A stretch of 32,000 nt of DNA from Limnochordales bacterium (GCA_036562495.1 DATCKA010000068.1:1-32000), one strand, 5' to 3'; counted from the stretch's first letter, positions 6,980 through 29,765 are shown. Notes: generated from the sequence alone by a model not told the origin. A program made the numbers and translations.

Positions 6980-8154
6980 CCTGCAGCCACCTCCAGCACC
7001 AGGCGGGCCGCGCGGGCGGTCGCTCCGGGACTGCCGAGGCGGGCCCGGACCGCCTCGAGGTCCTGACGCTCCCGCTCCAGCCGCTCCGGTGACTGGAGCC
7101 TCTCCAGCACCGCCTGTGCGACGCGCTCGGGCCGGGCGTCGTGCTGGACCAGCTCTTCCACCAGGCGACGCTGAGCTATGATGTTGGGCAACGCGATGTG
7201 AGGTACCCTGACGAGGCGCCGCGCCAGCAGGTAGCTGGGCTCCGACACCCGATAGACCACGACCATGGGCACCTGCCACAACGCGGTCTGCAGCGTGGCC
7301 GTACCCGAACAGACCACCGCGAGGTCCGCGGCCGACAGCGCCTGCCAGATGCCCCCGCCCACCAGCCGGATGCCCGCCTCCCGGTGAGCGCTGCCTCCCC
7401 TGGCCTCCAGCAGGCGGGGGTCGATGCCGGGCGCGACCGAGGCCACGAAGCGCACGCCCGGTCGAGCCGCCCGCACCATCCGGGCCGCCTCGGCCATCAT
7501 GGGGTAGAGCTGCTGGATCTCCTGCATCCGGCTGCCCGGCAGCAGGGCCACCAGGCGCTCGCCCTCGCCGAGTCCCATTCGCCGGCGAGCCTCGTCCCTG
7601 GGAGGCCGGTCCGGCACGTCGTCCAGGATCGGGTGCCCCAGCCATGTGGCCCGGGCTCCGGCCTCACGGTACAGCGGCACTTCGAAGTCGAAGGCGCAGA
7701 TCACCTGCCGGGCGAACCCGGCCACCACCCGGGCACGCCCGGCCCCCCAGGCCCAGACCGCGGGGGCGATGTAGTAGACGACAGGGATCCCGAGTTCGGC
7801 CAGGGCCGGCCCGAGCCTCAGGTTGAAGCCGGGGAAGTCGATGAGCACCGCCACCGCTGGCCGAAAACGCCGGGCCGCCTCGACCAGCCGCCCCATCACG
7901 CGCCGCAACACCGGCAGCTGACGCAGCGACTCGGTGAAGCCCACGGCGCCCCGTCCCGTGGTGTCGTAGAGCAGGTGGACGCCACTCGCGCGCATGGCGC
8001 GGCCGCCCATGCCGAAGAGCCGCACCTCCGGCGCCTGGGCCTTGAGTTGCCTGGCCAGGGTGGCACCGTAGCCGTCGCCGGAGGCCTCGCCGGCCACCAT
8101 CATCACTCGCAGACGCTGTCGAGTCGGGGCCAGGCCCCCCTCAGAAGGCGACAA
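6976..8154 (-). CDS. lpxB: Lipid-A-disaccharide synthase LpxB
   Basis: Motifs VAGEASGDGYGATLARQLK, LIDFPGFNLRLG, YYIAPAVWAWGAGR, GHPILDD and SGTATLQ. The track start is TTG 8154, which overlaps lpxI by 14 nt. GTG 8106 or ATG 8103 (MMVAGEASGD) are alternative starts. Confidence 0.9.
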   Translation of the reverse strand: MSPSEGGLAPTRQRLRVMMVAGEASGDGYGATLARQLKAQAPEVRLFGMGGRAMRASGVHLLYDTTGRGAVGFTESLRQLPVLRRVMGRLVEAARRFRPAVAVLIDFPGFNLRLGPALAELGIPVVYYIAPAVWAWGAGRARVVAGFARQVICAFDFEVPLYREAGARATWLGHPILDDVPDRPPRDEARRRMGLGEGERLVALLPGSRMQEIQQLYPMMAEAARMVRAARPGVRFVASVAPGIDPRLLEARGGSAHREAGIRLVGGGIWQALSAADLAVVCSGTATLQTALWQVPMVVVYRVSEPSYLLARRLVRVPHIALPNIIAQRRLVEELVQHDARPERVAQAVLERLQSPERLERERQDLEAVRARLGSPGATARAARLVLEVAAG

Positions 8155-9013
8155 TGGCGATCCCGGCCCTGTCCGCCGCCCGCACCACGCGCTCCCGGTG
8201 AAGGAGCAGGCACCGGTGGGCCTCGACGGCGAGGCACGAGGCCCGCGCGGCCCGCATGGCGCGCAGCGTGTCCGGCCCGATCACCGGGGTGTCGAAGCGC
8301 AGATCCTGGTCAGGGCGGCTCACCTTGACCACCACCGAGCCCGGCCCCGCCAGCCGACCCGCCCGGCGGATGGTCGCGTCGGTCCCCTCCGCTGACGCCT
8401 CCACCGCCAGCACCGTGCCATGCCGCACCACCACGGTCTGTCCGATGTCGAGCGCCGCCACCTCCCGGGCAAGCCGGCGCCCTACCTCGATGTCGGCCGT
8501 CTCACGGGCGTCGGGCGCGCGTCGAGTCAAGACGCCGGGTTGGGCCAGGAGATGACCCAACAGCTCGTGCTGGCTGCCCAGGCGGATCCCCCGCCGCTCC
8601 AGAGCCTCGGCGAAGAGCCGCGAGAGGTCCTGATCCTCGAGGAAGCGGCCCTGCTCGTACAGAGCCCGACCTTCTCCCGCAGCCGCCTGCTCGAAGAGAG
8701 CCGACGCCGCCACGCGATTGACCTTGCCGGCGGCGTACACCGCCCGGACCCCGTGTCGGCAAAACGTCTCCACCACTCGCTCCCAGTCGGCAGGGCTGAG
8801 CCGATACGCATGCACCCGACCCTCGAGGCTGGGCCCGATGCTTGTCTCCCCGTGGCGACGGGGCTGGCCCATGTCGAGCTCCACCACCACGACTCCCAGC
8901 CCTCGTGCCAGGGCCGCTTGCACCATGGCTCCAGGAAGCTCGCCGTCCCCCGCCACCACGCCGACCCAGCCGGCAGGGTCCGACCGGTGCGCGGACTCGT
9001 CCAGGACGCTCAC
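8141..9013 (-). CDS. lpxI: UDP-2,3-diacylglucosamine hydrolase LpxI (DUF1009 family)
   Basis: 290 aa from GTG 9013, which forms a GTGA overlap with the lpxA stop. It sits in the lpxA-lpxI-lpxB position known from LpxI-using bacteria. The C-terminal half reads DIGQTVVVRHGTVLAVEASAEGTDATIRRAG...VVVKVSRPDQDLRFDTPVIGPDTL, as I recall for LpxI. Confidence 0.75.
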   Translation of the reverse strand: MSVLDESAHRSDPAGWVGVVAGDGELPGAMVQAALARGLGVVVVELDMGQPRRHGETSIGPSLEGRVHAYRLSPADWERVVETFCRHGVRAVYAAGKVNRVAASALFEQAAAGEGRALYEQGRFLEDQDLSRLFAEALERRGIRLGSQHELLGHLLAQPGVLTRRAPDARETADIEVGRRLAREVAALDIGQTVVVRHGTVLAVEASAEGTDATIRRAGRLAGPGSVVVKVSRPDQDLRFDTPVIGPDTLRAMRAARASCLAVEAHRCLLLHRERVVRAADRAGIAIVAF

Positions 9014-9789
9014 CGCATCAACCCTCGCCGTCGCTCCTCCATAAACCGCAACAGCTCCTGCACCTCGTCGAAGCGGCCGATCTGACCGGCGATGCGCTCC
9101 AGGGCCTCCTGCAGACGCAGGCCGCTGGCGTAGATCCACTCGAAGGCCTGCGAGACCGCCTCGATGGCCTCGGGCGACGCGCCCCAGCTCTCGAGCCCCT
9201 CGCGGTGGAAGCCCAGGATCTCCGCCGGGCTCCCGCCGGCCCGAGCGAAGGGCGGCACGTCGCGGGTCACCGTGGCATGACTCTCGATGTACGCCAGTCG
9301 GCCGACGTGGGTGAACTGGTGGACCCCCGTCATGGCCCCGATGACGGCCCCGTCACCGATGACGCTGTGGCCCCCCAGCGCGCTGCCCGCCCCCAGCCGC
9401 ACCCGGTCCCCTACCCGGCAGTCGTGGCCGATGTGGGCCCCGTCCTCGATGATGCACCCATCGCCCACCGAGGTGACGCCGCCACCGCCCGGTGTGCCGC
9501 GGTGGAGCACCGCGTGGCTCCCGATGCGGTTGCCCTCGCCCAGCACGAGTTGGGTCGGCTCACCTGCATAGCGCACGTCCTGAGGCTGGCCGCCCAGCAC
9601 CGCGCCGATACCGACGTGGTTGTGGGGCCCCAGCCGGGTACCACCGTGGATGACGGCGAAGGCCTCGATGACGCACCCGGCTCCTATCTCGGCACCGGCT
9701 CCGATGAAGGCAAAGGGGCCGACCACGACGTCCGGCCCCACGCGTGCGCCCGGCTCTACGACGGCCGCTGGGTGAAGGCTTGTCCTCAA
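9010..9789 (-). CDS. lpxA: Acyl-ACP--UDP-GlcNAc O-acyltransferase LpxA
   Basis: Left-handed beta-helix hexapeptide repeats (HPAAVVEPGARVGPDVVVGPFAFIGAGAEIGAGCVIEAFAVIHGGTRLG...) followed by the LpxA-type helical C-terminus. My preferred start is TTG 9789, which forms a TTGA overlap with the fabZ stop and leaves a normal 5-residue lead before HPAAVV. The track start at 9846 would overlap fabZ by 61 nt. Confidence 0.9.
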   Translation of the reverse strand: MRTSLHPAAVVEPGARVGPDVVVGPFAFIGAGAEIGAGCVIEAFAVIHGGTRLGPHNHVGIGAVLGGQPQDVRYAGEPTQLVLGEGNRIGSHAVLHRGTPGGGGVTSVGDGCIIEDGAHIGHDCRVGDRVRLGAGSALGGHSVIGDGAVIGAMTGVHQFTHVGRLAYIESHATVTRDVPPFARAGGSPAEILGFHREGLESWGASPEAIEAVSQAFEWIYASGLRLQEALERIAGQIGRFDEVQELLRFMEERRRGLMR

Positions 9790-10235
9790 GGCTTCGACTC
9801 GCCTCCCTGCGCGGGCGCCGCAGCGAAGAGGAACGTGGCCTCGCATGCCACCTCGTCGCCCACCAGCGCTCGTGCCTCGACCATACCGGTGGAGGAGCGG
9901 ATGCGCTTGGCGCTCGCCTCCAGCCGCAGGGTGTCGCCCGGGACCACCGTGCGTCGGAAGCGGGCCCCGTCGATCCCCGCCAGTAGCGGCACTTTGCCGA
10001 GCTGCGCCACATACGGGTAGAGCATGACGGCAGCCGCCTGGGCCAGGGCCTCCAGCATCAGCACGCCGGGCATCAGCGGACGCCCGGGGTAGTGGCCCGC
10101 GAAGAAGGGCTCGTTGATGGTGACATTCTTGATGGCCACCACCCGCTGCCCCTCCTCCAGCTCCAGCACCCGATCCACCAGCAGAAAAGGATAACGATGC
10201 GGGATACGGCGCCAGATCTCAACGATGTCCAGCAT
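9786..10235 (-). CDS. fabZ: 3-hydroxyacyl-ACP dehydratase FabZ
   Basis: IPHRYPFLLVDRV and FFAGHYPGRPLMPGVLMLEALAQ hot-dog-fold active-site motifs. The ATG at 10235 is preceded by a GGAGGGGAAGGAAGG purine tract. Confidence 0.95.
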   Translation of the reverse strand: MLDIVEIWRRIPHRYPFLLVDRVLELEEGQRVVAIKNVTINEPFFAGHYPGRPLMPGVLMLEALAQAAAVMLYPYVAQLGKVPLLAGIDGARFRRTVVPGDTLRLEASAKRIRSSTGMVEARALVGDEVACEATFLFAAAPAQGGESKP

Positions 10236-11106
10236 CGGTGCCTTCCTTCCCCTCCGTGCCCTCGAGCACCTTCTCCATGGCCTCCACCAGGCGCGCCGTC
10301 AGCGCGTGGTTGCCCCGCACCGCCACCACTCGGGCGGCCAGGGGACCGGCGAGGGCCAGGTCGCCGATCAGGTCCAGGAGCTTGTGCCGTGCCACCTCGT
10401 CAGGCAGGCGAAAGCCCCCCACGGGGCCATCATCGGCGATGAGCAGGACGTTGTCGAGGCTTCCACCCAGCCCCAGCCCCTGTGCCTTGAGGCGCGCCAC
10501 CTCCGCCGCGAAGGCGACGGTGCGGGCCGGGGCGATCTCGTGGCGAAAGGTCTCGGGCGTGACGGTCAGCTCCGCGAACTGGTCCCCCAGCCCGGGGTGG
10601 TCGCTGATGAAGGCGAAGCTGAGCCGGAGATCGCGCCACGGCATCGCGGCCACGAAGCGGTCGGCGTCGCCCACCCACACCGCCCGGGAGAGCCGCCGCA
10701 GCCGCCGGGGGGCCGCCTGCTCGACGAGGCCGGCCCGATCCAGCGCCTCCACCCACCCGAGCGCGCTGCCGTCCAGGATGGGCAGCTCGGGCCCTCGCAC
10801 CTCGATGCGGACGTTGTCGACCCCCAGCGCCATCAGGGTCGCCAGCAGGTGCTCCACCGTCATCACCGTGACGCCGTCGACCCCGAGGGCCGTGCAGCGT
10901 GGCGTGTCGACCCGGTGCCGCACCGAGACCGGGATCACGGCCGGGGGGTCGACGTCGGTACGGACCAGCGACCAGCCGTGGTCCTCCGGCGCCGGCGAGA
11001 GCCGCACTTCCGTCGAGATGCCGGTGTGAAGCCCGACGCCCTGCAATGTCACCGCCGAGGCCAGGGTCCGCTGACGCGGACGGCCTTCGGACGCTGCCGA
11101 AGCCAT
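10219..11106 (-). CDS. lpxC: UDP-3-O-acyl-GlcNAc deacetylase LpxC
   Basis: Motifs RQRTLASAVTLQGVGLHTG, TVEHLLATLMALGVDN, PILDGSA and HKLLDLIGDLAL. ATG start at 11106. The 3' end overlaps fabZ by 17 nt in another frame. Confidence 0.9.
   Translation of the reverse strand: MASAASEGRPRQRTLASAVTLQGVGLHTGISTEVRLSPAPEDHGWSLVRTDVDPPAVIPVSVRHRVDTPRCTALGVDGVTVMTVEHLLATLMALGVDNVRIEVRGPELPILDGSALGWVEALDRAGLVEQAAPRRLRRLSRAVWVGDADRFVAAMPWRDLRLSFAFISDHPGLGDQFAELTVTPETFRHEIAPARTVAFAAEVARLKAQGLGLGGSLDNVLLIADDGPVGGFRLPDEVARHKLLDLIGDLALAGPLAARVVAVRGNHALTARLVEAMEKVLEGTEGKEGTDAGHR
10241..10255 (-). promoter_or_regulatory. Purine-rich Shine-Dalgarno tract GGAGGGGAAGGAAGG for fabZ
   Basis: The reverse complement of ccttccttcccctcc lies 5 nt upstream of the fabZ ATG (10235), inside the 3' end of lpxC. 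Confidence 0.5.
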
Positions 11107-11119
11107 GCGCCGTCGCCTC

Positions 11120-14041
11120 TCATGCCACGGCCAGTCGGGCGAGGCGGCGGCCCACCTCGGAGGTCGGCCGGGCCAGCACGCGAGCCGGCGGGCCGGACTC
11201 CACCACCTGGCCCCGGTCCATCAGGATGAGCCGGTCCCCGACCCGCGCCGTGAAGCCGGGTTGATGGGTGACGACCAGCATGGTGGTTCTGAGGCGCCCA
11301 ATCAGTTCCTCCATCAGTTGGAGGAGGTCGGCCGCCAGCATCGGGTCCAGGTGAGAGGTGGGCTCGTCCCACAGCACCACCGACGGTTGCGCCGCCAGGG
11401 CGCGGGCGATGGCCACCCGCTGGCCCTCCCCGCCGGACAGCTCGGCAGGCCGCCTGTCCAGGTGCCGCCCCAGCTCCAGGGCCGACAGCCACATGGCCGC
11501 TCGCTCGTAGGCCTCGGGCCAGGGGATGCCCGCCGAGGCCGCTCCCAGGGCGGTATTCTCGAGCACCGAGAGGTGCCCGACGAGCTGGGGCCGCTGGAAG
11601 ACCATCGCGACGCGTGCGGCCAGATCGCGCCGGCGCGCCTCCGGCAGCGCCCAGAGGTCCTCCCCCTCGATCCTCACCCTGCCGGCATCCGGCTGGATCA
11701 GGCCCTTGAGGCACCGCAGCAGCGTCGACTTTCCGCAGCCGCTGGGGCCCATCAGGATCACCGTCTCGCCTCGTGCCACCGACAGCGAGACGCCGTCGAG
11801 CACGGGTCGGCCGCCGAAGTGCCGCACCAGGCCCTCGGCCTCCAGCACGACGGGGCCCCGCTCGGCAGCCTCCGTCGGCTCGTGGACGCCCGCCCGGCGC
11901 CGCTCCTCGATGCTGGCGGTCAGGGCGGCCGTCCGGCTCTCGTCACCCGCGGCCTCGGTCGCGGCCGACGCCGGTGCGCGGGGCGGCCTGCGGCTCGCCG
12001 TCAACGCCAGCAGCCACGGCCGCACCGAAGGGGCCACCACGCCCTCCAGGATGGCCCCGGCCTCCATCCCCATGGCCAGCGCCGCCTCGACCGCGTCGGC
12101 ATCCACGGGAGCCAGCCGGGGGCCCCATCGCCCGGCGACGAGCCCGGCAGCGACGCCGACGCCGGCCAGGACCAGCAGGATGAGTACCTCTTGCACGCCC
12201 AGGGCCAGCACCCCGGCGCCAAGGGCCAGCAGACCGCCGACCAGAGCGCCGAGGGCTGCGACCCGCCAGGCATCACGCGACAGCCGCCCGGCCCGTCCTC
12301 GGCGCGCCGTCTGCACCAGGGCCGCCACGGCCGCTCCGTCGTTGAAGAGAGTCCAAAGCACCAGGGCTCCCATCGCCAGGGCAGCTCCCACCACCCCGGC
12401 GCGCTGGGCCACCCGCATGACGGCCGCCCGAGCGCTGGGCGAAGCCACGGCTGCCGGAGAGACGTAGACCCGGCTCTCGTCCAGCTGCAGGGCCCTGCCC
12501 ACCACGCCGCCGATGGCTGAGGGCGACGGGAAGCGCTCCCCTCGCAGCACCAGTTCGACCCCCGCGGCCGCCGCCAGGGGGTCGGCCCCCGCCTGCTGGA
12601 GCACGTGCAGGGCCGATGCGATCTCGGTGCCGCCCAGTCGCGGCAGGCTCTCTCGCAAAGAGCGGACGCTGGCCTGCACCGCGGGCAGGTCGCCCTGTCG
12701 GTACTCGCGCAGCTGCTCCTGCAAGCGATCGAGCTGCTGGCGCAGCGAGGCCACGTAGTCCACGGCCTGCTGGGGCGCGTCGCCGGCCTCCCCGCCCAGC
12801 AGCATGCTCAACCCCAGGGCCAACAGCGTGTCGCGCAACGGATCCGATGCAGTGGACGCCAGTTGCTGCAGGTCGTTCAGCATCCGCTCGAGACGTCCGG
12901 CTGCCTGCTCCAGGCCGTCCACGGCCACCCGGGCCGCGTCCAGGGCCTCCTGTCCGGCGCTGCCCAGGGTCTGGAGGCGAGCCAGGAGCTCTTCGCTCTG
13001 GCGCAGGGCCGCGTCGATGCGGGCCTGTCCGCCGTCGACGATCCCCTGGCCGACCTGCTGACCCGAGGGCCGGCGGACGGGCAGCTCCTGCCCCAGCGTC
13101 GGACTCAGCTGGTCGCTGGTCAGCGCCTCGTCGGATAGGACGGCCAGCCAGTGCTCCCCCGCCTGGGCTACGATGCGCGCCGGCCAGTCGCCGACCAGTA
13201 CCTGCTCGCCCTCGTGCAGGGGCGGATCGAGCCCGGCGGAGGGCTCGACGCGCGCCAGGGTGGCATAGGCGAAGAAGAAGTCGCGCATGCGGCCCACCCA
13301 CCGGGCGGCCTCGGCCCCATCCCCCTCGGAGGCGGGAGCTGCCTCCACGACGGTGACGGGCCAGGAGGCCTCGGTGACGGCCTGGGCGGCGCGACGTGCC
13401 GACTCCCGGTCGACCACCTGTCCCGGGGTGGTGATCCGCACCACCCGGTAGCGGTCCAGGTACGCCTCCAGCGCATCCTCGAAGCCATCGAGGCCGGCCG
13501 CATCCGACAGCACGACGACCCGGTCCGACCCGTGGACGAAGGAGAAGGCCACTTCAGGCCGACCGCTCAGCCACCCCTCCAGGTCGTCCGCCAGAGCCGG
13601 GTGGAGGCGGCTGATGACGATGGCCGGCTCGACCAGGGGCACCCACGACACGTACCCCGGCAATGACGGCAGCTCCTGCTCCAGTCGCTCGAAGGCGGAC
13701 GCTCCCCGCCACCTGGGCGAGAGGGAGACCAGGAGCACGGTGCTGCCAGCCGCCGACGGGCCCTCCTGGACGGCCGCCCCGGGAAAGGTGCGTCGCAGCA
13801 GGTCGTCGACGGCCGCCAAGGCCTCTCGCCGGCGGTCGTGGTGCACCTGCACCAGCAGGTCGAAGCGGCCCGCCTCGCCCACGGTGGCATCCACCGTGGA
13901 GGAGAGGAGTCGCTCCATGGCCCATCCGACGGCGCGGCCGCTGGAGGCGCAGGCGACGACGGCCACCAGCAACCATACCGTCAACCTGTAGACGAGGCGA
14001 CCGGCCCGGGTGCGGGCCGCGCCTCGCGGCTCGAAGTGCAA
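11120..14041 (-). CDS. Uncharacterised fusion protein: TM1, ~500-aa coiled-coil ectodomain, three TM helices and a C-terminal ABC ATPase (inverted MacB/FtsX-like topology)
   Basis: The ATPase has Walker A GPSGCGKST, signature LSGGEGQR, Walker B VVLWDEPT and H-loop VVTHQ. TM helices are LTVWLLVAVVAC..., VVGAALAMGALVLWTLF, VAALGALVGGLLALGAGVLALGV and VLILLVLAGVGVAAGLVAG, with Arg-rich cytoplasmic loops. I chose the TTG start at 14041 because GGAAAGGAGAGG lies 9 nt upstream. The track start is GTG 14077, which gives 985 aa. Confidence 0.7.
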   Translation of the reverse strand: MHFEPRGAARTRAGRLVYRLTVWLLVAVVACASSGRAVGWAMERLLSSTVDATVGEAGRFDLLVQVHHDRRREALAAVDDLLRRTFPGAAVQEGPSAAGSTVLLVSLSPRWRGASAFERLEQELPSLPGYVSWVPLVEPAIVISRLHPALADDLEGWLSGRPEVAFSFVHGSDRVVVLSDAAGLDGFEDALEAYLDRYRVVRITTPGQVVDRESARRAAQAVTEASWPVTVVEAAPASEGDGAEAARWVGRMRDFFFAYATLARVEPSAGLDPPLHEGEQVLVGDWPARIVAQAGEHWLAVLSDEALTSDQLSPTLGQELPVRRPSGQQVGQGIVDGGQARIDAALRQSEELLARLQTLGSAGQEALDAARVAVDGLEQAAGRLERMLNDLQQLASTASDPLRDTLLALGLSMLLGGEAGDAPQQAVDYVASLRQQLDRLQEQLREYRQGDLPAVQASVRSLRESLPRLGGTEIASALHVLQQAGADPLAAAAGVELVLRGERFPSPSAIGGVVGRALQLDESRVYVSPAAVASPSARAAVMRVAQRAGVVGAALAMGALVLWTLFNDGAAVAALVQTARRGRAGRLSRDAWRVAALGALVGGLLALGAGVLALGVQEVLILLVLAGVGVAAGLVAGRWGPRLAPVDADAVEAALAMGMEAGAILEGVVAPSVRPWLLALTASRRPPRAPASAATEAAGDESRTAALTASIEERRRAGVHEPTEAAERGPVVLEAEGLVRHFGGRPVLDGVSLSVARGETVILMGPSGCGKSTLLRCLKGLIQPDAGRVRIEGEDLWALPEARRRDLAARVAMVFQRPQLVGHLSVLENTALGAASAGIPWPEAYERAAMWLSALELGRHLDRRPAELSGGEGQRVAIARALAAQPSVVLWDEPTSHLDPMLAADLLQLMEELIGRLRTTMLVVTHQPGFTARVGDRLILMDRGQVVESGPPARVLARPTSEVGRRLARLAVA

Positions 14042-14050
14042 GCGGCGTGG

Positions 14051-14062
14051 CCTCTCCTTTCC
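14051..14062 (-). promoter_or_regulatory. Shine-Dalgarno site GGAAAGGAGAGG serving the TTG start at 14041
   Basis: The reverse complement of cctctcctttcc reads GGAAAGGAGAGG, with 9 nt to the TTG. This is the strongest SD-like motif I found in the window. Confidence 0.55.
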
Positions 14063-14126
14063 CGATCCGGACCGCACTATACCATCGCGACGCAGCCGGC
14101 CGGGGAAGGAGTTGCTGGGCCGCCCG

Positions 14127-14876
14127 CTACGGCGTGCCGGTTTCGGAGGGTGACGGGGATGCTTCCTGGACCTGCTGGATCTCCGCCGGCCCGTACAACG
14201 TCAGCTCGTCGTTGTCGACGCGGTACTCCACGCGGGATGCCCGCGCCAGTCGGAAGTCGTCGAGCCGGGCCTGTACCGTCGACTGCGGTGAGGCCATCAC
14301 GATGTGCCCGGCCTGGCGGTCGTAGCGAAGGGTCTCGGCCGCGGCCCAGAGGCTCGGCTCCGCCTGGGTGAGCTCGACGCCGCCCTCGGCCGTCAGGATG
14401 CCGCCCGCGTCGTCCACCTCGATGGTGGGCGCCGTGACCACCCTCAACGGGGCTCCGTCGGTCGCGGCCTGCTGGGGCAGCTGCTCCAGGCGCGCAGCCC
14501 CGGTCAGCACGAGCCGGCGCTGGGCATACCAGATCCGGACCTGGTCGGCCCGGGCGCGCAGCTCGGGGCCCGTCATCCGCACGCTGCCCGACAGGTGCAC
14601 CGTCTCCTCTTCGGGATCCCACTCCAGCCGGTCGGCCTCGGCTCGCCACCCCTGCCACTCGGCCAGGACCCGCCCCCCGGCGGGGCTGAAGATCCACCGG
14701 CGAACCCCGGGATCCCACCGGCCGCTGGGTGCGTCGTCCGGGATGCCCACGACGCTGATGCGCACCGGAGATGGAGAGGCGGCCTGGCCCGGATGGGCGA
14801 CCGCCACGACCAGGTTCATCGCCAGCATGGCCGCACCCAGCAGGGGCCACCATCGGGCATGTCTTGGCGATCTCAA
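14127..14876 (-). CDS. lptA: Periplasmic OstA/LptA-like LPS-bridge protein
   Basis: 249 aa from TTG 14876, which forms a TTGA overlap with the upstream stop. The signal peptide is RSPRHARWWPLLGAAMLAMNLVVAVAHPGQA. The mature part is beta-rich with repeated patterns such as VHLSGSVRMTG, LVLTGAARLEQ and ILTAEGGVELTQ, typical of OstA-type jellyrolls. It lies directly downstream of lptD and the lptC-like gene. The call rests on topology and context. Confidence 0.55.
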   Translation of the reverse strand: MRSPRHARWWPLLGAAMLAMNLVVAVAHPGQAASPSPVRISVVGIPDDAPSGRWDPGVRRWIFSPAGGRVLAEWQGWRAEADRLEWDPEEETVHLSGSVRMTGPELRARADQVRIWYAQRRLVLTGAARLEQLPQQAATDGAPLRVVTAPTIEVDDAGGILTAEGGVELTQAEPSLWAAAETLRYDRQAGHIVMASPQSTVQARLDDFRLARASRVEYRVDNDELTLYGPAEIQQVQEASPSPSETGTP

Positions 14877-15526
14877 CGCGTCGCATCCCCTTCCAAGCGC
14901 ACCGGGCCCAGCAGCCGGATCTCGCCGCTGTCGGGCAGGTACTCCACGGACTCGGCCCGGGCCTTCAGGCCCCGGCCCGTCGAGTCGTCGAGGCGCACCC
15001 CGCCCGAGAGACGGATGACCCCTGCCGCCACGTCGACCTCCAGCAACGGCGCCTCGACGATGGCGGTGTCGTAACGCAGGGCGTTGGGCCCGGCGGAGGT
15101 GAGCCGCTGACGCTGGGCGTCCCACACCAGGTCCTGGCTGTGCAACACCGCCCCGCCCGGGTGTGTCAGCGTGTAGCGCCCGTGCAACAGCAGCCGACCG
15201 GCGTCGGGCTCCCACCGTCCGCCGTCGCCCTCGAAGCGCAAGAACAGTGCACCGGCCCGGTAGAAGGCGCCATCCTGCACGGCGGTGAAGGCCACGTCGT
15301 CAGAGGCGGCGGGCATCTCGATGCTTTGGGCCCGGAGCTCCCATTGGAGCTGGCCCCGGTGCCGGCCCACCAGATGCACCTCGTGCGTGCGGATGCCGGG
15401 GACCGGGCCCTGCTCCTCGCTGGCGGGGACGGAGGCGGCGCGCCGGTCCAGGAGCCACCACCCGGCGCCCGTTGCGACGAGCGCCGTCGCCACCAGCACC
15501 GCGGCGATCCACCCTCGGTCCCTCAT
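14873..15526 (-). CDS. lptC: Inner-membrane-anchored LptC-like protein
   Basis: 217 aa from ATG 15526, which forms an ATGA overlap with the lptD stop. It has a single N-terminal anchor (GWIAAVLVATALVATGAGWWLL) followed by an all-beta region ending LKARAESVEYLPDSGEIRLLGPVRLEG. It lies between lptD and the lptA-like gene. The call rests on topology and context. Confidence 0.5.
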   Translation of the reverse strand: MRDRGWIAAVLVATALVATGAGWWLLDRRAASVPASEEQGPVPGIRTHEVHLVGRHRGQLQWELRAQSIEMPAASDDVAFTAVQDGAFYRAGALFLRFEGDGGRWEPDAGRLLLHGRYTLTHPGGAVLHSQDLVWDAQRQRLTSAGPNALRYDTAIVEAPLLEVDVAAGVIRLSGGVRLDDSTGRGLKARAESVEYLPDSGEIRLLGPVRLEGDATR

Positions 15527-17856
15527 GGCGTCACGGGCCTTTGGAGCCGCTCCACCAGGGCCTGCCACTGCGCCTCATCGGCCAGGCTGCCGGGCCGGTC
15601 CTGTCCCAGCGCCACCATGGTAGCGGGAAAGGCCTTGACCTGGTAAGCCAGGGCCACCTGGCGGTGGACAGGGTCGTAGCGGAGGAGGATGGCCCGGCAG
15701 TCGTCGTCGAGGGCCACCCCCACCTGGGCCGACACCAGGCCGCCGAGGCGCAGGTCCCACGCGCCCTCGCCCACCAGCACCCACCGCGGCAGCACCCGCA
15801 GGTGGGCGCTCACGTCGGCCCGCTCCAGCCGGTCCTCCAGCGGGTCGTAGCGGGCACCGAGCCTCAGGCCCGCCCGGTCCGTCGCCTCCCAGGCCACCGC
15901 CGCCCCCACCTCGTCGAAGGCGTCCATCTCCGGCCGGTAGCGGCCGATGACCTCGGCCCGGCCCAGGCCGCTCGTCCAGGCCAGGCGTCCGACGATGGCC
16001 TCCCACCGCGCCTCGGCGATGCGGTACCCGGCCGAGAGGCTGCCCTCCAGCCCGTGCCCCCGTGCCCGCAGGGAGCCGGTCGCGAGGCCCCAACGTTGCA
16101 GGACGAGATCATAGGTGGCCGACAGCGAGGCCCTGAGCGGCCTGCCCTCTCCCGCCACCCCCGTCAACGTCAGCGTCTCCTCGTCATCGACCTGGTCGAA
16201 GACGAAGGGCGACCGGCCCGAGCCCAACGGGACCTCTAGCCGATAGACGCCCTGCAGGTAGGCCGAGCGTCCGGCCGGCCACCGGGCCGATGCCGACGTC
16301 GTCACCGACACCTGGCGGTCGCCGCCCAGGTACGCCGCCCCGCTGAGCGCTCCCCGGGCCTCTAGCTGCCACGCCCCGAGGCGCGCCGGCCCCGCCTGCA
16401 GGCGGAGCGCGCCCATGGCTCGCCCGTCGGCCACGGCCTCATCGAGGCTGGCATCTCCCTCGGCCGGCCGCACCTCCTCGTAGCGCCCCACCGAGGCCTC
16501 GGCCTCCAGCCGGACGCCCCCCTCACCTCCCCAGGCGCCGAGAGGCAGCCGGGCCGTCAGCTCCGGGAGGGCCGTCACGCTCCGCCACTCGGTGGCTGCG
16601 GCCGGGTCGTCGAACCGGTCGGGGTGCGTCGTGTGGGAGGCCGAGAGGGCCACCTGCGCTTCGCCCAGCCGACGCGCCAGCGTCGCCGCCATGTCCCAGG
16701 CGTCACCGGGCACCTGCCCGGGCGGGGCGGAGTAGAGATCCCAGCGGCCCGCCACCGACAGCCGCCATGGGCCCTCGCCGGGCGTCTCGAGCTGGAGCTT
16801 CCCTGTCGTAGCCCCCTGCAGGGGCCCGCCCTGGCCCTCTGCCGGCAGCGTGCCCTGGCCTCGAGAGGCGATGGAGAGCCCCCATTGGGGGATAGAGCCG
16901 GCCAGCGTGGCCTCGCCGTGGTAGAGAAGGCCTTGCCCCGAGGCTCGCCGGGCGCCCTCGGCGCGCCACGAGAGCCGTCCGTCGCCTGCCACCAGCTCGC
17001 CCTCTGCACCCGCCCGCAGGTCCGGTGGGGAACCGTCAGGGCCACGCAGCGTGCCGCCCATCCAGATGGCGGCCCATGTGTCGCCGTCGTCGTAGAGCGC
17101 CTGGTACAGCTCGAGCCCGGGGCCGAGCCGCTGGAAGTAGTCGATCCCGACGTAGCCGTAGGTCGCACCCGGTCCCATGTAGGGGAAGCGAGACCGGACG
17201 TACCATCCCTCCCGCGCCCCGTAGCCCACCTCGGGCGGCACCAGTCGCCCGGCCCGCGGGTTTTCGAGGGAGAAGTGGAGGTACGGCCAGTAGAAGAGGG
17301 GGATGCCGCTCTCCCAAAAGACGGCGTGATGGGCCGCCACGTCCTTGCCGGGACGTACCTCCAGGCTTCGCACGGTCACCCGGTAGTGGGCCAGCTCCAT
17401 GGGCAACGGACAGGTCGTCAGCACGGCACCCGACGCCCGGATCTCGGTCGCATCGCCCTCCATGCCGGTCGCCTCCATGAAGACCGGCCCCTCGACGCCC
17501 TCGGCCTCGAAGCGCGCGCGGGCCTCCTGCACACTCACCTGGCCGGTGCGCAGGTCCACCCGTGCCGTGTCGCCCTCCAGCACCTGCCCCGGCCGCCGGG
17601 CCCGGACCTGGCCGTAGAAGGCGATGACCCGCTCGACGTCGTCGTAGACGGCCTGGTGCGCCTCCACCTCCAGCTCGCCCTGGACGAAGCGCACCCCTCC
17701 CTCGGCCTGCACCCGGGGAGGCGCGATGGCGGCCACGGCGCCGTCGGCCAGCTCCAGGCGCCATGCCTCTTCGGCTGCCGCCGTCCCCGGTGCTGCGCCG
17801 GCCGCCAGGGCCACAGCCAGGGCGAAAGCGGCCGCGACGCCGAGCCGGGCGTTCAT
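15523..17856 (-). CDS. lptD: LPS-assembly outer-membrane protein LptD (OstA family)
   Basis: 777 aa from ATG 17856, which forms an ATGA overlap with the lptF stop (an ATG at 17865 is also possible). The signal peptide is MNARLGVAAAFALAVALAAGAAPGTAAA. An N-terminal OstA-like jellyroll follows (VQAEGGVRFVQGELEVEAHQAVYDD...ARVDLRTGQVSVQEA, TTCP). The rest is ~550 aa of Gly/aromatic-rich alternating sequence consistent with a large barrel. The upstream 309 codons of the track ORF overlap lptF out of frame. Confidence 0.7.
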   Translation of the reverse strand: MNARLGVAAAFALAVALAAGAAPGTAAAEEAWRLELADGAVAAIAPPRVQAEGGVRFVQGELEVEAHQAVYDDVERVIAFYGQVRARRPGQVLEGDTARVDLRTGQVSVQEARARFEAEGVEGPVFMEATGMEGDATEIRASGAVLTTCPLPMELAHYRVTVRSLEVRPGKDVAAHHAVFWESGIPLFYWPYLHFSLENPRAGRLVPPEVGYGAREGWYVRSRFPYMGPGATYGYVGIDYFQRLGPGLELYQALYDDGDTWAAIWMGGTLRGPDGSPPDLRAGAEGELVAGDGRLSWRAEGARRASGQGLLYHGEATLAGSIPQWGLSIASRGQGTLPAEGQGGPLQGATTGKLQLETPGEGPWRLSVAGRWDLYSAPPGQVPGDAWDMAATLARRLGEAQVALSASHTTHPDRFDDPAAATEWRSVTALPELTARLPLGAWGGEGGVRLEAEASVGRYEEVRPAEGDASLDEAVADGRAMGALRLQAGPARLGAWQLEARGALSGAAYLGGDRQVSVTTSASARWPAGRSAYLQGVYRLEVPLGSGRSPFVFDQVDDEETLTLTGVAGEGRPLRASLSATYDLVLQRWGLATGSLRARGHGLEGSLSAGYRIAEARWEAIVGRLAWTSGLGRAEVIGRYRPEMDAFDEVGAAVAWEATDRAGLRLGARYDPLEDRLERADVSAHLRVLPRWVLVGEGAWDLRLGGLVSAQVGVALDDDCRAILLRYDPVHRQVALAYQVKAFPATMVALGQDRPGSLADEAQWQALVERLQRPVTP

Positions 17857-18950
17857 GCCGCCCATTCCGCCCTGACGTAGAGCCACGCGGCGGCCGCCAG
17901 GCACAGCACGTTGGGCAGCCACGCCGCCAGCAGCGGGTCCATCGCACCCGAGTTGCCCAGTGAGCGGGAAAGCGCGAAGACCACGTAATAGAGCAGCGCC
18001 AGTCCCAGGCTGGCCGCCATCCCGAAGGCCCGCCCGCCGCGCCGCCCGTAGAGGCTCAGGGGCAGCCCCAGCACAGCCAGCACGAGATTGGAGACCGGCA
18101 GCGCCAGCTTGAAGTGGTAGTCGACCATCATGGCCCGCGCCACCACGCCGGCCTGGCGCAGCCGACGGATCTGCTCGCCCAGCTCCCGCCGGCTCATCTC
18201 CTCGGTGCGCTTCTGGGAGCCCAGGTAGTCTTCGGCCGGCTCGGGCAGCGTCAACTCGTAGCGCGCCATGGCCGATTCGAGCTGGACGAACCCGTCCCGG
18301 TCCAGTTGCTTCATGGTGACGCCCTCGAGGTGCCAGGTGCGGCCTTCGTACCAGCCCTCCCGGGCGGTGTAGATCACCGGGAAGGTGCCGGGGCGCAGCT
18401 CGTAGACGATGACGTCGAAGAGATGGCGGCTGGCGCGGTCGACGCGCCGCACGTAAAACCACTGGTGGGGCGAGCCGCGGAAGAAGACGTTGTCGGAGAT
18501 GGCCGGCACCGGGTCGGCCTGAATCGCTCGGCGCAACTCCACCTCGTAACGATGGTTGGCGACGGGCACCACGTACTCGTTGAGCAGGTACGCCCCCACG
18601 CTGATGGCCGCGCCCAGCACGACGATGGGCATCCCGATGCGAAGGACGCTCAAGCCCGAGGTGCGCATCACCGTCATCTCGCCGTCCCGCACCAGGCGGC
18701 CGGCCGACAGCAGGGTGCCGAAGAGCGAGGCGATGGGCAGGGCGATGGACAGCGCCTCCGGCAGCTTGAGCGCCAGCAGCCACAGCGTGGTGGCTGCCGA
18801 CGCCCGCTGCACCACCAGCATGTCGGTCAGCTGGAAGATGGGTCCCGTCAGCAGCAGGACCAGGAAGCCCGCGGCCGTCGCCGCGAAGGGCCCGATGAAC
18901 TCAGCGGCGACGTAGCGGTCGAGGCGACGGATCCGCAGCGGCGGCGGCAC
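17853..18950 (-). CDS. LPS export ABC permease, LptF/LptG (YjgP/YjgQ) family
   Basis: The N-terminus RRLDRYVAAEFIGPFAATAAGFLVLLLTG is the family hallmark. It has six hydrophobic helices with a ~130-aa periplasmic insert between helices 3 and 4. GTG start at 18950. I cannot tell F from G. Confidence 0.85.
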   Translation of the reverse strand: MPPPLRIRRLDRYVAAEFIGPFAATAAGFLVLLLTGPIFQLTDMLVVQRASAATTLWLLALKLPEALSIALPIASLFGTLLSAGRLVRDGEMTVMRTSGLSVLRIGMPIVVLGAAISVGAYLLNEYVVPVANHRYEVELRRAIQADPVPAISDNVFFRGSPHQWFYVRRVDRASRHLFDVIVYELRPGTFPVIYTAREGWYEGRTWHLEGVTMKQLDRDGFVQLESAMARYELTLPEPAEDYLGSQKRTEEMSRRELGEQIRRLRQAGVVARAMMVDYHFKLALPVSNLVLAVLGLPLSLYGRRGGRAFGMAASLGLALLYYVVFALSRSLGNSGAMDPLLAAWLPNVLCLAAAAWLYVRAEWAA

Positions 18951-18968
18951 CGGCTCCCTGCGCCCTCC

Positions 18969-19886
18969 TCACCGCAGGGCCGCGATGAGCCCGATCTGGT
19001 GGATGCCGCCGTAGGCCGGGCCGCCGAGGAAGGCGTAGCTGACGGCCCAACGCTTGCCCGGCTCCTCGACGCCGGCTCCCAGCAGGAAGCCTTCGCCACG
19101 GGACGAGCTCTCGTAGCCCAGGCGCAGGGCCACGGGAGCCGCCGGGTACAGCCGGGTCTCCAGGCGCACCGTGCGGCCCGTGCTGACGTCCAGCAGGTCC
19201 AGGGCATTGGCCTCCAGCACCAGGTAAGCGTTGGCCTCGTAGGCGATGCCCACGCCCAGGGCCGGTGACCTCGCCTCCGCCCACTGCTCGGCAGAGCCGC
19301 CGACGCCGACCTGGCGCACCTCCAGCAGCGAGTCGAGCCGCGCGGATGCGGACACCCGATCGCTCAGCGCCGAGATGAGGCCGATGTCGACCCCCAGGTA
19401 GTGGTCTTCGCGAGGTCGGCCGGAGCCTGGCATCTCCCCGCGGACCCGCCGGTAGTGCCCCGCCACGCCCAGGGCCCAGTCGGGCCCCATGCTCATGGCG
19501 TACCCGTAGCCTACGCCCAGCTCCGTCACCGATGATGGCAACGAGCCGACAAGAGCGTCTCGCCCGCCGTGCGAGACCCACAGCGCCCAACCCTCGCCGT
19601 CGGCTCCCTCCGCCCAGCCGACCGTGTGGACGAAGGACGCCGCGTCCCCGACGGTGCCGTCCCTCACGGTGACGGCCGCGCCCCACCGCCCGCCCTCCAG
19701 CAGGGCAGGCCCGGCCGGATTGGCCAGGGCCCGAAAGGGGTCGTCGGGAGCCGCCTGGGTGGCCAGCGCCTCGAAGAGCGCGGCCTGCGGCGGTGCGGGG
19801 GGCACCGCCTGGCCGGCGAGCGCAGACGTGACGCCCCCGCCGAGGAGCCATGCCCCCAGCGTCCATGAGACGAGCCCTACGCCCAT
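18969..19886 (-). CDS. Hypothetical exported protein, predicted outer-membrane beta-barrel
   Basis: 305 aa from ATG 19886 (the track TTG 19937 would overlap the upstream gene). The signal peptide is MGVGLVSWTLGAWLLGGGVTSALAGQ. The mature part shows amphipathic alternating stretches (ELGVGYGYAMSM, ALGVAGHYRRV, YLGVDIGLISAL, ALGVGIAYEANAYLVLEA, VALRLGYES). An N-proximal ALANPAGPAL motif is also present. I did not recognise a family. Confidence 0.5.
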   Translation of the reverse strand: MGVGLVSWTLGAWLLGGGVTSALAGQAVPPAPPQAALFEALATQAAPDDPFRALANPAGPALLEGGRWGAAVTVRDGTVGDAASFVHTVGWAEGADGEGWALWVSHGGRDALVGSLPSSVTELGVGYGYAMSMGPDWALGVAGHYRRVRGEMPGSGRPREDHYLGVDIGLISALSDRVSASARLDSLLEVRQVGVGGSAEQWAEARSPALGVGIAYEANAYLVLEANALDLLDVSTGRTVRLETRLYPAAPVALRLGYESSSRGEGFLLGAGVEEPGKRWAVSYAFLGGPAYGGIHQIGLIAALR

Positions 19887-19902
19887 GCGGCGAAGAGCCC
19901 TG

Positions 19903-20574
19903 TCACGGCATCGAACGGATGATGATGCCCGCCACAACGTCGAGCGCCCCCCTGTCCCGCACGCCGATCCCCACGGTGAAGTTGGGTCCGAACTGGAAGT
20001 TGACGCCGCCTCCCAGCGACGTGCCGTCGTAGTCGATGCCGACCGCCACGACGGGCCTCGGCAGGCTGCCGGGGCGCCTCACGGTCACGGGGTTGAGCAG
20101 GGCGTCGAGCCCGGCGAACGCGGACAATCGCTCTTGCCCGCCGGACCGGATGCCGGCGTGCACCCGCAGCAAGGGGCCCGGTAGCCGGTGGCTCGCCACC
20201 AGATAGCCCTCATCGCCCTCGATGCCCACGGCCACCGCCGGCACCGGTCCCTCCTCCTCCAGCAGCCGAAAGCGTGCCAGCAGCCCCAACGGGGCCTCGT
20301 CGGTGGACGCATCGGATGCCAGCGTCAGCCCCAGCTCCAGGGCGTCCGTCAACTGGTAACGCAGGAAGCTGAAGATCCGCTCGCCGGTCATCACGTTGAG
20401 ACCGGCGGTAAACTGGCCGGCCGGGCCGGTGTCGGCCGTGGGCACGTTGACCATGGCCGTGGTGCGGCTGCCGGCCAGGGTCTCGGCTCGGGTGACCTGC
20501 GCCCCCCACGGCCACGTCCCCACCAGCAGCGCCAGCACCGCCACCGTCGACCAACGCCTCATCCGTGTCACCAT
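19903..20574 (-). CDS. Hypothetical exported protein, predicted small outer-membrane beta-barrel
   Basis: 223 aa from ATG 20574 (alternatives are GTG 20589 and ATG 20562). The signal peptide is MVTRMRRWSTVAVLALLVGTWPWGAQV. Alternating beta-like stretches include FTAGLNVMTG, FSFLRYQL, LELGLTLA, AVAVGIEGDEGYLVA and LGGGVNFQFGPNFTVGIGV. I did not recognise a family. Confidence 0.5.
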   Translation of the reverse strand: MVTRMRRWSTVAVLALLVGTWPWGAQVTRAETLAGSRTTAMVNVPTADTGPAGQFTAGLNVMTGERIFSFLRYQLTDALELGLTLASDASTDEAPLGLLARFRLLEEEGPVPAVAVGIEGDEGYLVASHRLPGPLLRVHAGIRSGGQERLSAFAGLDALLNPVTVRRPGSLPRPVVAVGIDYDGTSLGGGVNFQFGPNFTVGIGVRDRGALDVVAGIIIRSMP

Positions 20575-20578
20575 GCCG

Positions 20579-27623: not shown

Positions 27624-27715
27624 GGTGCGATTCGTGTTGGACCTTCGATGAAAAGGGGACGATTCCCGTTACCGGGCGTGTGCCAATGGCTGGCGGCTCA
27701 GGAGGACGCTGCGAC

Positions 27716-29734: not shown

Positions 29735-29765
29735 GGCAGCAGTCCCTTCGGCGCCGGGGGGTGAT

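Follow-up and report, generated by a model that had tools for sequence, protein, structure and literature searches.

An importer-like two-component ABC system beside lpxC in diderm Firmicutes, fused into a single protein in a Limnochordales bacterium

The stretch of DNA analyzed here, 32,000 nucleotides (nt) from a Limnochordales bacterium (GCA_036562495.1, DATCKA010000068.1:1-32000; hereafter, the window), carries, among genes for lipopolysaccharide (LPS) and outer-membrane (OM) biogenesis, an uninterrupted 985-codon open reading frame (ORF) at 11120-14077 (-), which appears to encode both subunits of a two-component ATP-binding cassette (ABC) system in one polypeptide. This system, a permease plus an ATPase, is denoted X in this report. 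The best explanation of X, which we consider fairly probable, is an importer-derived two-component ABC engine that drives a periplasmic ectodomain in LPS/OM biogenesis. The more far-reaching proposal, namely, that X is an ancestral, unrecognized LPS-OM component in which an importer-derived ABC module was repurposed as a periplasmic mechanotransducer or extractor, filling a missing-part function, is tentative and may well not hold.

Separate genes in most lineages, a fusion in the window

The X family was delineated with an exhaustive HMMER search in which amino acids (aa) 1-740 of the fused protein were compared with 1.84 billion representatives. The family members, counted as clusters at 50% identity (~125), comprise 125 proteins with E<=1e-3, of which 90 reach E<=1e-10 and 19 reach E<=1e-30. 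Most of these are 600-850 aa long and share one layout, i.e. a first transmembrane helix (TM1), an ectodomain and three further TM helices, without a nucleotide-binding domain (NBD). The ATPase lies in an adjacent gene of its own in 78 of the 79 fetched loci that have both parts, and the remaining locus (L002) is fused like the window gene. The gene 3' of P0005, a distant unfused relative, opens with an ABC ATPase N-terminus, and in Sporomusa ovata, a separate gene for a 265-aa ATPase lies between the gene for the 784-aa permease and lpxC. The identity of the fused NBD to the X-ATPases is 45% for that of S. ovata (219 bits) and 43% for the Orenia-type one (213 bits), compared with 37% (128 bits) for the LptB protein of the window itself; the X-ATPases that other lineages encode in a separate gene are its orthologues. 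A preliminary description of the window had called the gene an orphan, a label that the adjacent ATPase genes contradict.

The fused members of the family are ~930-1000 aa long, contain the Walker A and signature motifs and are all rich in Ala, Gly, Arg and Pro (high-GC). The fusion was seen again in nine clusters, 31-63% identical to the window protein, and hence is not an assembly artefact. The segment between the two halves (aa 695-744) is of low complexity, variable in length and poorly conserved, as expected of a fusion linker. By these comparisons, the fusion is confined to a high-GC clade that includes the window and whose closest named relatives are Limnochordia. A word-indexed homologue search with a 44-sequence profile returned the same five proteins, the search being probably swamped by Ala/Arg-rich words, and a low-GC profile returned 27. 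Everywhere, the X permease is annotated as a 'hypothetical protein' or, generically, as an 'ABC transporter permease'; no Pfam domain is recorded for it, nor is there an NCBIfam model.

LptB was considered as the identity of the fused NBD, given the lptC-lptA-lptB gene order in E. coli. This candidate was rejected: the LptB of the window is encoded elsewhere (2260-2982), the fused NBD is nearer to the X-ATPases, and LptB is not among the top 25 NCBIfam models for this domain.

A fixed place beside lpxC

To assess the distribution of X, each GTDB species was represented by one genome, and these genomes were scanned with the motif EIV[VI]Px[GA]RPG, built on 14 closer sequences; 148 relatives were confirmed, and the best 80 of these were kept for inspection. 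Among the best 80 of the 148, the carriers from Negativicutes are Sporomusa, Pelosinus, Anaerospora, Dendrosporobacter, Lucifera and Massilibacillus, and the further carriers include one Limnochordales metagenome-assembled genome (MAG) and many unclassified Bacillota MAGs. Other members of the family carry the names Limnochordia bacterium and Candidatus Darwinibacter acetoxidans, and those from Halanaerobiales are Selenihalanaerobacter shriftii and Orenia metallireducens. L077, L081, L069 and P0152, which are labelled Betaproteobacteria, Bacteroidota, Syntrophothermus and Chitinophagales, contain a Firmicute-type, LpxI-containing cluster together with the X pair and are probably misbinned or mislabelled MAGs.

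The proteins of the window served as queries in a search for the neighbours of X. In almost every primary locus, the order is X-permease, X-ATPase, LpxC, FabZ, LpxA, LpxI, LpxB, MsbA. Among the 72 loci with enough sequence, lpxC is found directly 3' of X in 55, and another 4 have fabZ in that place. This leaves 13 loci, namely second copies from Sporomusa or Pelosinus genomes and one MAG locus that adjoins lptB. Nearly all genomes with second copies also carry a primary copy of X, and no primary copy was found outside the LPS cluster among the loci inspected. The Orenia-type locus (L083) reads LptF, LptG, an 894-aa LptD-like protein, LptC, LptA, X-permease, X-ATPase, LpxC, FabZ, LpxA, LpxI, LpxB, MsbA, DUF374 and LpxK, so that the order LptF/G-LptD-like-LptC-LptA-X-LpxC-FabZ-LpxA-LpxI-LpxB-MsbA is the same in this locus and in the window. 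In Sporomusa, the genes 5' of X encode LpxD, a small YjbH-like OM protein (OMP) and an LpxL-type acyltransferase.

In the window, the fused gene is preceded by genes for an LptA-like protein and LptC, a long ORF with a weak match to LptD, and a single LptF/G gene, and is followed by genes for LpxC, FabZ, LpxA, LpxI, LpxB and an MsbA-like protein. The stop codon of the fused gene lies 13 nt before the lpxC start, as already described, along with the lpt genes on the other side, of which the LptD-like ORF is identified by a weak match only. BamA, TamB, LpxD, FlgI, DUF3084 and a SpoIVB-type peptidase are encoded in the window as well. The fused gene and its two conserved neighbours are the following:

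11120..14077 (-): fused permease-ATPase gene, 985 codons (ORF list; codon-position GC; Shine-Dalgarno sequence AAGGAG before TTG)
10219..11106 (-): lpxC, 13 nt 3', the conserved downstream neighbour (PF03331, E=3e-86)
14127..15215 (-): LptA-like gene, the conserved upstream neighbour in Limnochordia-type and Halanaerobiales-type clusters (LptD_N/LptA matches at aa 260-351; synteny); the true start is probably internal to this ORF

The lpt/lpx neighbourhood of X in Halanaerobiales, Negativicutes and Limnochordia bears out the initial view that this is an uncharacterized envelope ABC system tied to the LPS/OM cluster. Because Halanaerobiales and Limnochordia are reportedly the two lineages that branch deepest within the Firmicutes (Taib et al. 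2020, cited by PMC11456536), the position of X beside lpxC is probably ancestral.

The second X pairs of Sporomusa lie outside the LPS clusters (L056 2877-11102; L054 2805-11122). One second copy in Sporomusa is located right behind a TetR-HlyD-AcrB efflux operon, and another one behind genes for a methyl-accepting chemotaxis protein (MCP) and chemotaxis proteins (MCP-CheB-CheR-CheX); the contexts of the Sporomusa and Pelosinus second copies have no common theme.

The fused gene is coding over its whole length

The GC content of the window is 69-76% throughout, so that long ORFs could arise by chance, and therefore, the coding signal of the 985-codon ORF was checked. The GC content at codon positions 1, 2 and 3 is ~0.80/0.53/0.89 in every 100-codon block across residues 1-950, and these values recur in the lpxC and lpxB genes of the window. 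This uniformity indicates that the whole ORF, including the N-terminal 740 codons, is coding, and a high-GC ORF artefact is thus ruled out.

The start codon is less certain. A Shine-Dalgarno sequence, AAGGAG, is located 9 nt 5' of an in-frame TTG at codon 13 (window ~14041), which may be a better start than the GTG at codon 1; TM1 is kept in the protein whichever of the two is used. The public gene call of P0001, which is 99% identical, begins at M54, whereby TM1 would be lost. This start was ruled out since the TM1 helix is found in every full-length member of the family, and the public call is probably wrong.

Layout and topology of the fused protein

Hydropathy places TM1 at aa 28-46 and three more helices at aa ~556-650, and an AlphaFold2 model concurs. 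The only Pfam domain in the fused protein is ABC_tran (PF00005, aa 760-908, E=1e-35); at E<=1, aa 1-740 match nothing in Pfam except for weak coiled-coil noise. The ABC domain (aa 745-980) has an intact set of catalytic motifs, as originally noted: Walker A (GPSGCGKS), Q-loop, signature (LSGGEGQR), Walker B (VVLWDEP, with the catalytic Glu) and H-switch (THQ). The density of Lys and Arg is 0.33 in the N-terminal tail, 0.24 in the loop between TM2 and TM3, 0.09 in the 509-aa region between TM1 and TM2, and 0 in the turn between TM3 and TM4. The low density in the 509-aa region, together with the necessarily cytoplasmic location of the NBD, places this region outside the cytoplasm, in agreement with the preliminary description. 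The overall layout proposed there, from the Arg-rich tail through TM1, the ~500-aa ectodomain, three TM helices and linker to the ABC ATPase, is upheld by hydropathy, the model, the charge distribution and Pfam. Apart from the ectodomain, the parts of the protein are as follows (pLDDT, predicted local distance difference test):

13997..14077 (-): Arg-rich cytoplasmic N-terminal tail, aa 1-27 (9 Lys+Arg in 27 residues)
13940..13996 (-): TM1 anchor helix, aa 28-46 (hydropathy, family conservation, AlphaFold2)
12128..12412 (-): TM2-TM3-TM4 bundle, aa 556-650 (hydropathy; AlphaFold2 pLDDT ~90)
11996..12109 (-): EAA coupling loop, aa 657-694 (alignments; MetI/ArtQ/PotC profile matches; BPD_transp_1 in 10 of 20 members)
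11846..11995 (-): Ala/Arg/Glu/Pro low-complexity fusion linker, aa 695-744 (alignment; pLDDT <50-70)
11123..11845 (-): ABC ATPase domain, aa 745-985 (PF00005; GlnQ/EhuA/TcyN as best NCBIfam matches; identity to X-ATPases)

In the family alignment, the cytoplasmic turn between TM2 and TM3 is short, Arg-rich and variable both in length and in sequence. In an alignment of the TM1 region with the four closest relatives (99, 66, 57 and 58% identity, full length), the helix is conserved. The Cys of a lipobox (VVAC|ASSG) that had been proposed at the end of this helix is present only in the window protein and in the upstream region of its 99% identical twin; in the relatives, the motif is replaced by AGAGG or AGGTG, with Gly or Ala at the Cys position. 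The absence of the Cys from the closest relatives rules out the reading of the protein as a lipoprotein processed by signal peptidase II, and TM1 is a conserved anchor helix rather than a lipoprotein signal.

Coupling loop and ATPase of the importer kind

The most conserved stretch of the permease in the family alignments is a loop directly after TM4. In the fused protein, this loop (P657-V-D-A-D-A-V-E664-A-A-x3-G670-x9-V-V-A-P683-x3-P687) fits the canonical EAA motif of importer permeases, EAA-x3-G-x9-I-x-L-P, with exact spacing; the family consensus after TM4 is SPV-x3-E-x-x-A-G-x-A-L-G-L-x4-I-M-R-E-I-V-x-P-x-x-R-P-G-L-L. When 20 unfused relatives were scanned singly, the only recurrent Pfam family was BPD_transp_1 (PF00528), which matched 10 of the 20 at the last TM helix and the segment that follows; it was not matched by the target itself in the Pfam scan. 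FtsX (PF02687) and MacB_PCD (PF12704) gave no match at E<=1 in the target or in any of these relatives.

When all PDB chain sequences were compared with a profile built from the TM2-TM4-EAA block (E<=10), seven sequences were returned. The first five places are taken by type I importer permeases, namely MetI (E=0.0044 and 0.0047), ArtQ (4yms_D, 0.0061) and PotC (0.0094 and 0.01). These alignments cover the EAA loop and the preceding helix, and that with PotC spans profile positions 32-146. No MacB, LolC/E or FtsX chain was returned.

The NBD points in the same direction. The best NCBIfam models for the target NBD are GlnQ, EhuA, TcyN and ProV, ahead of FtsE and LolD, with HisP and PhnC also among the leading importer models. 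The X-ATPase of S. ovata, which is less divergent and separates the two classes more clearly, scores 243 bits with GlnQ, 241 with ProV and 227 with PhnC, compared with 174 for FtsE and 165 for LolD, and the ranking is the same for the target. The top PDB matches of the NBD include ArtP, HisP and the ATPase of Art(QN)2 (4yms_J). All the scores are below the equivalog cutoffs, so that the X NBD is none of those named transporters.

The unfused permeases end ~10 residues past the EAA loop ('...RPGLLxLLNRxRxxF'), at the point where the linker starts in the target, which implies that the two TM helices that usually follow the EAA loop are missing. No gene resembling those for substrate-binding proteins (SBPs) was found in the conserved neighbourhood of X. 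Altogether, the NBD, the coupling loop and the TM helix next to it appear to be of the type I importer kind; each of these lines is weak, and all are consistent. The X permease is best classed neither with the MacB/FtsX proteins nor with the regular BPD_transp_1 permeases.

A modular ectodomain

The AlphaFold2 model covers aa 1-745 and was made with 29 family sequences (mean pLDDT 79; predicted template-modelling score, pTM, 0.58). In this model, the TM1 helix extends over aa 18-66 and runs on as a periplasmic stalk, followed by the predicted elements listed here:

13637..13858 (-): module 1, ferredoxin-like beta-alpha-beta-beta-alpha-beta, aa 74-147 (AlphaFold2, pLDDT >90)
13430..13624 (-): module 2, second ferredoxin-like unit, aa 152-216 (AlphaFold2, pLDDT >90)
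13031..13408 (-): module 3, alpha/beta with a small beta-rich insert, aa 224-349 (AlphaFold2)
12587..13030 (-): long helical hairpin, aa 350-497 (AlphaFold2 helices H350-409, H434-461 and H464-497, pLDDT 45-70)
12437..12562 (-): closing membrane-proximal beta-alpha-beta-beta element, aa 506-547 (AlphaFold2; conserved P-x-A-R before TM2)

Module 1 starts right behind a conserved post-TM1 motif, G-E-x-G-R/Y-F/Y-D, in which G67, G70 and D73 are invariant in the family alignments, and has local Foldseek matches to ACT/ferredoxin-like domains (prob ~0.95). The first helix of the hairpin (aa 350-409) is predicted to consist of 60 residues, or ~9 nm. The hairpin corresponds to the Leu/Gln/Glu/Arg-rich 'coiled-coil' region, and it is mainly here that the family members, which vary between 600 and 900 aa, differ in length. 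The 'giant coiled coil' of the preliminary description is thereby cut down to a predicted hairpin in aa ~350-500: most of the ectodomain is modelled as alpha/beta, and the hairpin, which is modelled with the lowest confidence, makes up ~150 of the 500 residues.

A Foldseek comparison of the aa 1-745 model with the PDB produced no convincing match. The best one was MmpL5 (E=2e-4), with further weak matches to Wzc, MmpL4, SecDF and AcrB at TM-scores of ~0.1; neither MacB nor LolC was among the top 50, and no periplasmic-binding-protein fold was found among the matches of the ectodomain. Neither YhgE/Pip/EsaA, to which the ectodomain had been likened in style at the outset, nor MCE/Mla matched the target or its relatives in hidden Markov model searches (Pfam, NCBIfam). 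The ectodomain matches no described family, as had been surmised and as the Pfam, NCBIfam and Foldseek searches agree.

A possible mechanism and the alternatives

Under the explanation that we favor, X would descend from a type I ABC importer similar to those for polar amino acids. The permease would have shed the two TM helices after the EAA loop and gained a novel ectodomain at the place where GlnP-type importers hold their fused binding domains. X would work as a dimer, and with four TM helices per protomer, an importer pore is probably impossible. Closure of the NBDs driven by ATP would be passed through the EAA helices to the small TM bundle and would move the ectodomain. Because the usual importer pathway is missing, the site of this work would be the periplasm or the outer leaflet of the inner membrane, and because of the fixed place beside lpxC, the target would most likely be a lipid or glycolipid step of LPS/OM biogenesis, or its control. 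Such a mode of action would resemble that of the mechanotransmission and extractor ABC systems (FtsEX, MacB, LolCDE, LptB2FG), reached from a different ancestor.

The searches yielded no confident match to a transporter family with an unrelated role, no equal spread through monoderm relatives or loss of the lpt-lpx neighbourhood, and no cytoplasmic placement of the 500-aa region, each of which the preliminary description had named as evidence against an envelope role. Several observations nonetheless weigh against the proposed explanation. The importer link is statistically marginal in the PDB profile search (E ~0.004-0.01), and the BPD_transp_1 matches are sub-threshold (best E=9e-4; for P0011, 14.2 bits against a gathering cutoff of 26.4). 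The Foldseek matches of the TM-block model are non-significant, with FtsX and LolC/E about as frequent as importer permeases. The hairpin, with pLDDT of 45-70, is a low-confidence region of the model. The synteny of X with lpxC is an association, not a mechanism, and X is not strictly bound to LPS genes, given that second copies in Sporomusa and Pelosinus lie beside a resistance-nodulation-division (RND) efflux operon or chemotaxis genes. Finally, the best 80 of the 148 relatives do not cover the presence or absence of X in Veillonella, Selenomonas and Acidaminococcus.

One alternative is that X is a true solute importer, similar to those for polar amino acids or to MetNI, in which the ectodomain is a novel fused binding module for the supply of envelope precursors or the recycling of products. 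The EAA loop and the NBD are of the importer type, and GlnP-type importers carry their fused binding domains N-terminal to the core of the TM domain, the same position as that of the extracytoplasmic domain of X. However, X has only three core TM helices and none past the EAA loop, so that the usual translocation pathway is missing; the ectodomain lacks a periplasmic-binding-protein fold in Foldseek, and an importer offers no known reason for the fixed placement between lptA and lpxC across three classes. We regard a solute importer as unlikely.

Another possibility is that X transports nothing and is a sensor or regulator, the ectodomain monitoring the state of LPS or the OM in the periplasm and ATP hydrolysis coupling to the control of LpxC, the committed step; X would then fill the role of YejM/LapB-FtsH in E. 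coli. The tightest and most conserved linkage of X is indeed that with lpxC, the reduced TM domain is unsuited to transport, and the control of LpxC is unknown in diderm Firmicutes, where PMC5007114 only infers a link between LpxC and FabZ. Against such a sensor, the NBD is the only cytoplasmic domain that could contact LpxC, there are paralogues away from lpxC, and the idea is purely inferential. We know of no precedent for an ABC importer-type module as a sensor of LpxC or LPS, and this role appears improbable.

The initial reading of the protein as an inverted MacB-like machine, i.e. a type VII (MacB/FtsX/LolCE) mechanotransmission ABC system with the ATPase moved to the C-terminus, holds for the topology, i.e. 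four TM helices of which the first two flank a large ectodomain. In its favor, FtsX and LolC/E chains are found among the non-significant Foldseek matches of the TM block, the NBD has good absolute scores with the LolD and FtsE models, and the ferredoxin-like modules recall the 'porter' subdomain of MacB. The rest of the evidence speaks for the importer class: neither PF02687 nor PF12704 has a match at E<=1 in the target or the 20 relatives, and the PDB profile search gives five importer permeases and no type VII chain. Further, the turn between TM2 and TM3 is short and unconserved, the conserved contact motif is the EAA loop after TM4, and on the NBD, importer NBD models outscore LolD and FtsE by 65-80 bits. 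A type VII origin of X is accordingly quite unlikely.

Least probable is an inner-membrane engine of a trans-envelope export or efflux conduit, in which the hairpin would act as that of a membrane-fusion protein and dock on a TolC-like or other OM partner: the ~9 nm hairpin on an alpha/beta base, the weak Foldseek matches to MmpL5/MmpL4, Wzc, AcrB and SecDF and the paralogue directly behind a TetR-HlyD-AcrB operon fit this picture, but the best match reaches only E=2e-4 with TM-scores of ~0.1, the hairpin has a low pLDDT, no TolC-like gene is consistently adjacent, and the association with an RND operon is confined to a single locus.

Comparison with characterized systems

With type I importers such as Art(QN)2 (4YMS), MetNI (3DHW/3TUI) and PotABC (8Y5F), X shares the EAA loop, the preceding TM helix and the NBD class, so that the NBD and the coupling helix match as a pair. 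Unlike these importers, X lacks the two post-EAA TM helices of the permease, has a 500-aa ectodomain, not of the SBP kind, that separates the core from an additional anchor helix at the N-terminus, has no binding-protein gene nearby and scores below the family thresholds; the fusion of permease and NBD is C-terminal.

With the type VII systems MacB, LolCDE and FtsEX, X shares a cytoplasmic N-terminus, four TM helices and a large periplasmic domain between TM1 and TM2, and like them, it probably has no transmembrane path for a substrate and would perform periplasmic work at the expense of cytoplasmic ATP. In X, however, there is no FtsX or MacB_PCD signal, the coupling element comes after TM4 whereas theirs lies between TM2 and TM3, the NBD is of the importer class, and the ectodomain, of which a helical hairpin is part, is twice as large.

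X shares its neighbourhood with LptB2FG-C, and the X-ATPase occupies the slot after lptC-lptA that is held by lptB in E. coli, where the operon order is yrbK-yhbN-yhbG. Nevertheless, LptB is encoded by a separate gene in the window (2260-2982) and is 37% identical to the X NBD, and the X permease has no LptF/G or OstA-like domain.

The Wzz/Wzc co-polymerases and the MmpL4/5 RND pumps resemble X in having an anchored alpha/beta base with a long periplasmic hairpin, and Wzc and MmpL4/5 are among the best, even if weak, whole-chain Foldseek matches. The TM-scores are very low, there is no sequence similarity, and the number of TM helices differs. The energy source of X is an ABC NBD rather than a bacterial tyrosine (BY) kinase or the proton-motive force.

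X in the literature on diderm Firmicutes

Diderm Firmicutes are central to the debate on the gain and loss of the OM, and their OM cluster has been catalogued several times; the X pair is an uncatalogued conserved member. Antunes et al. 2016 (PMC5007114) catalogued this cluster and picked out three unannotated conserved genes, COG0816, DUF3084/COG4372 and COG0750; the X pair is not among the three, and the gene table has no column for it. Neither is the pair mentioned in the available parts of PMC10665443 (Veillonella Mla) and PMC13018214 (a 2026 study of Acetonema). No paper describing the X family was found; Taib et al. 2020, which is outside this scope, may list the gene.

The earlier statement that diderm Firmicutes have no Lol pathway stands in part. 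For Acetonema, PMC13018214 reports an LptF/G homodimer, an atypical LptD without LptE, and no Lol, whereas PMC5007114 lists LolA and LolCDE candidates in Halanaerobiales. X is a testable candidate for one of the apparent gaps, namely LptE, Lol in Negativicutes, MlaA/C and the regulation of LpxC. As a new ABC architecture, with an importer EAA loop, only four TM helices and a 500-aa ectodomain, X also bears on the evolution of ABC transporter types into one another. If the proposed origin is true, X would be the first type I importer scaffold turned into a non-importing envelope machine.

Other genes of the outer-membrane cluster

The window has a single LptF/G-type gene (17853-18950 (-)) that scores 204 bits with LptG and 176 bits with LptF, both below the cutoffs, in line with the homodimer of LptF/G that has been reported in Acetonema longum. 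Two genes of this type are found in the Orenia-type locus L083 (2390-3490 and 3605-4690). A 1086-codon ORF at 15523-18783 (-) overlaps the LptF/G ORF, and hence its real start is probably near 17850. This ORF has no Pfam match; its similarity to LptD is weak (E=4e-7) and covers aa 355-529, and it resembles the atypical LptD of diderm Firmicutes. Equivalents of 717-894 aa are found at the same position in L001 and L083. In the ORF at 2260-3483 (-), 407 codons, only the C-terminal 239 match LptB (TIGR04406, 326.6 bits; cutoff 240), so that the true lptB occupies ~2260-2982, distant from lptC-lptA and behind msbA and an epimerase gene. Adjoining lptB is a gene for a DUF3084 protein with a long coiled-coil region (859-2205 (-)), one of the three 'new OM-related' genes of Antunes et al. 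2016 (PMC5007114).

A small OMP-like gene with a weak match to YjbH adjoins lpxD (19903-20589 (-)). A gene of like size that encodes a signal peptide is found at the equivalent position in Sporomusa ovata (L047, 6108-6740), a YjbH-domain gene borders the cluster of the Orenia type, and for Acetonema, F7NM17 is given as a YjbH OMP. This gene by lpxD is another conserved, unstudied member of the cluster. Between LptF/G and this small OMP gene lie two ORFs of ~320 codons that overlap each other (18901-19937 (-)) and have no Pfam or NCBIfam match.

A 672-aa ORF between TamB and FlgI (27716-29734 (-)) contains a SpoIVB peptidase S55 domain (E=1.5e-10), i.e. a sporulation-type SpoIVB gene within the OM cluster of a diderm organism; the ORF on the opposite strand (27578-29764 (+)) has no match and is probably spurious. 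The UDP-2,3-diacylglucosamine hydrolase step is represented by LpxI (8141-9139 (-)) rather than LpxH, as in all related loci.

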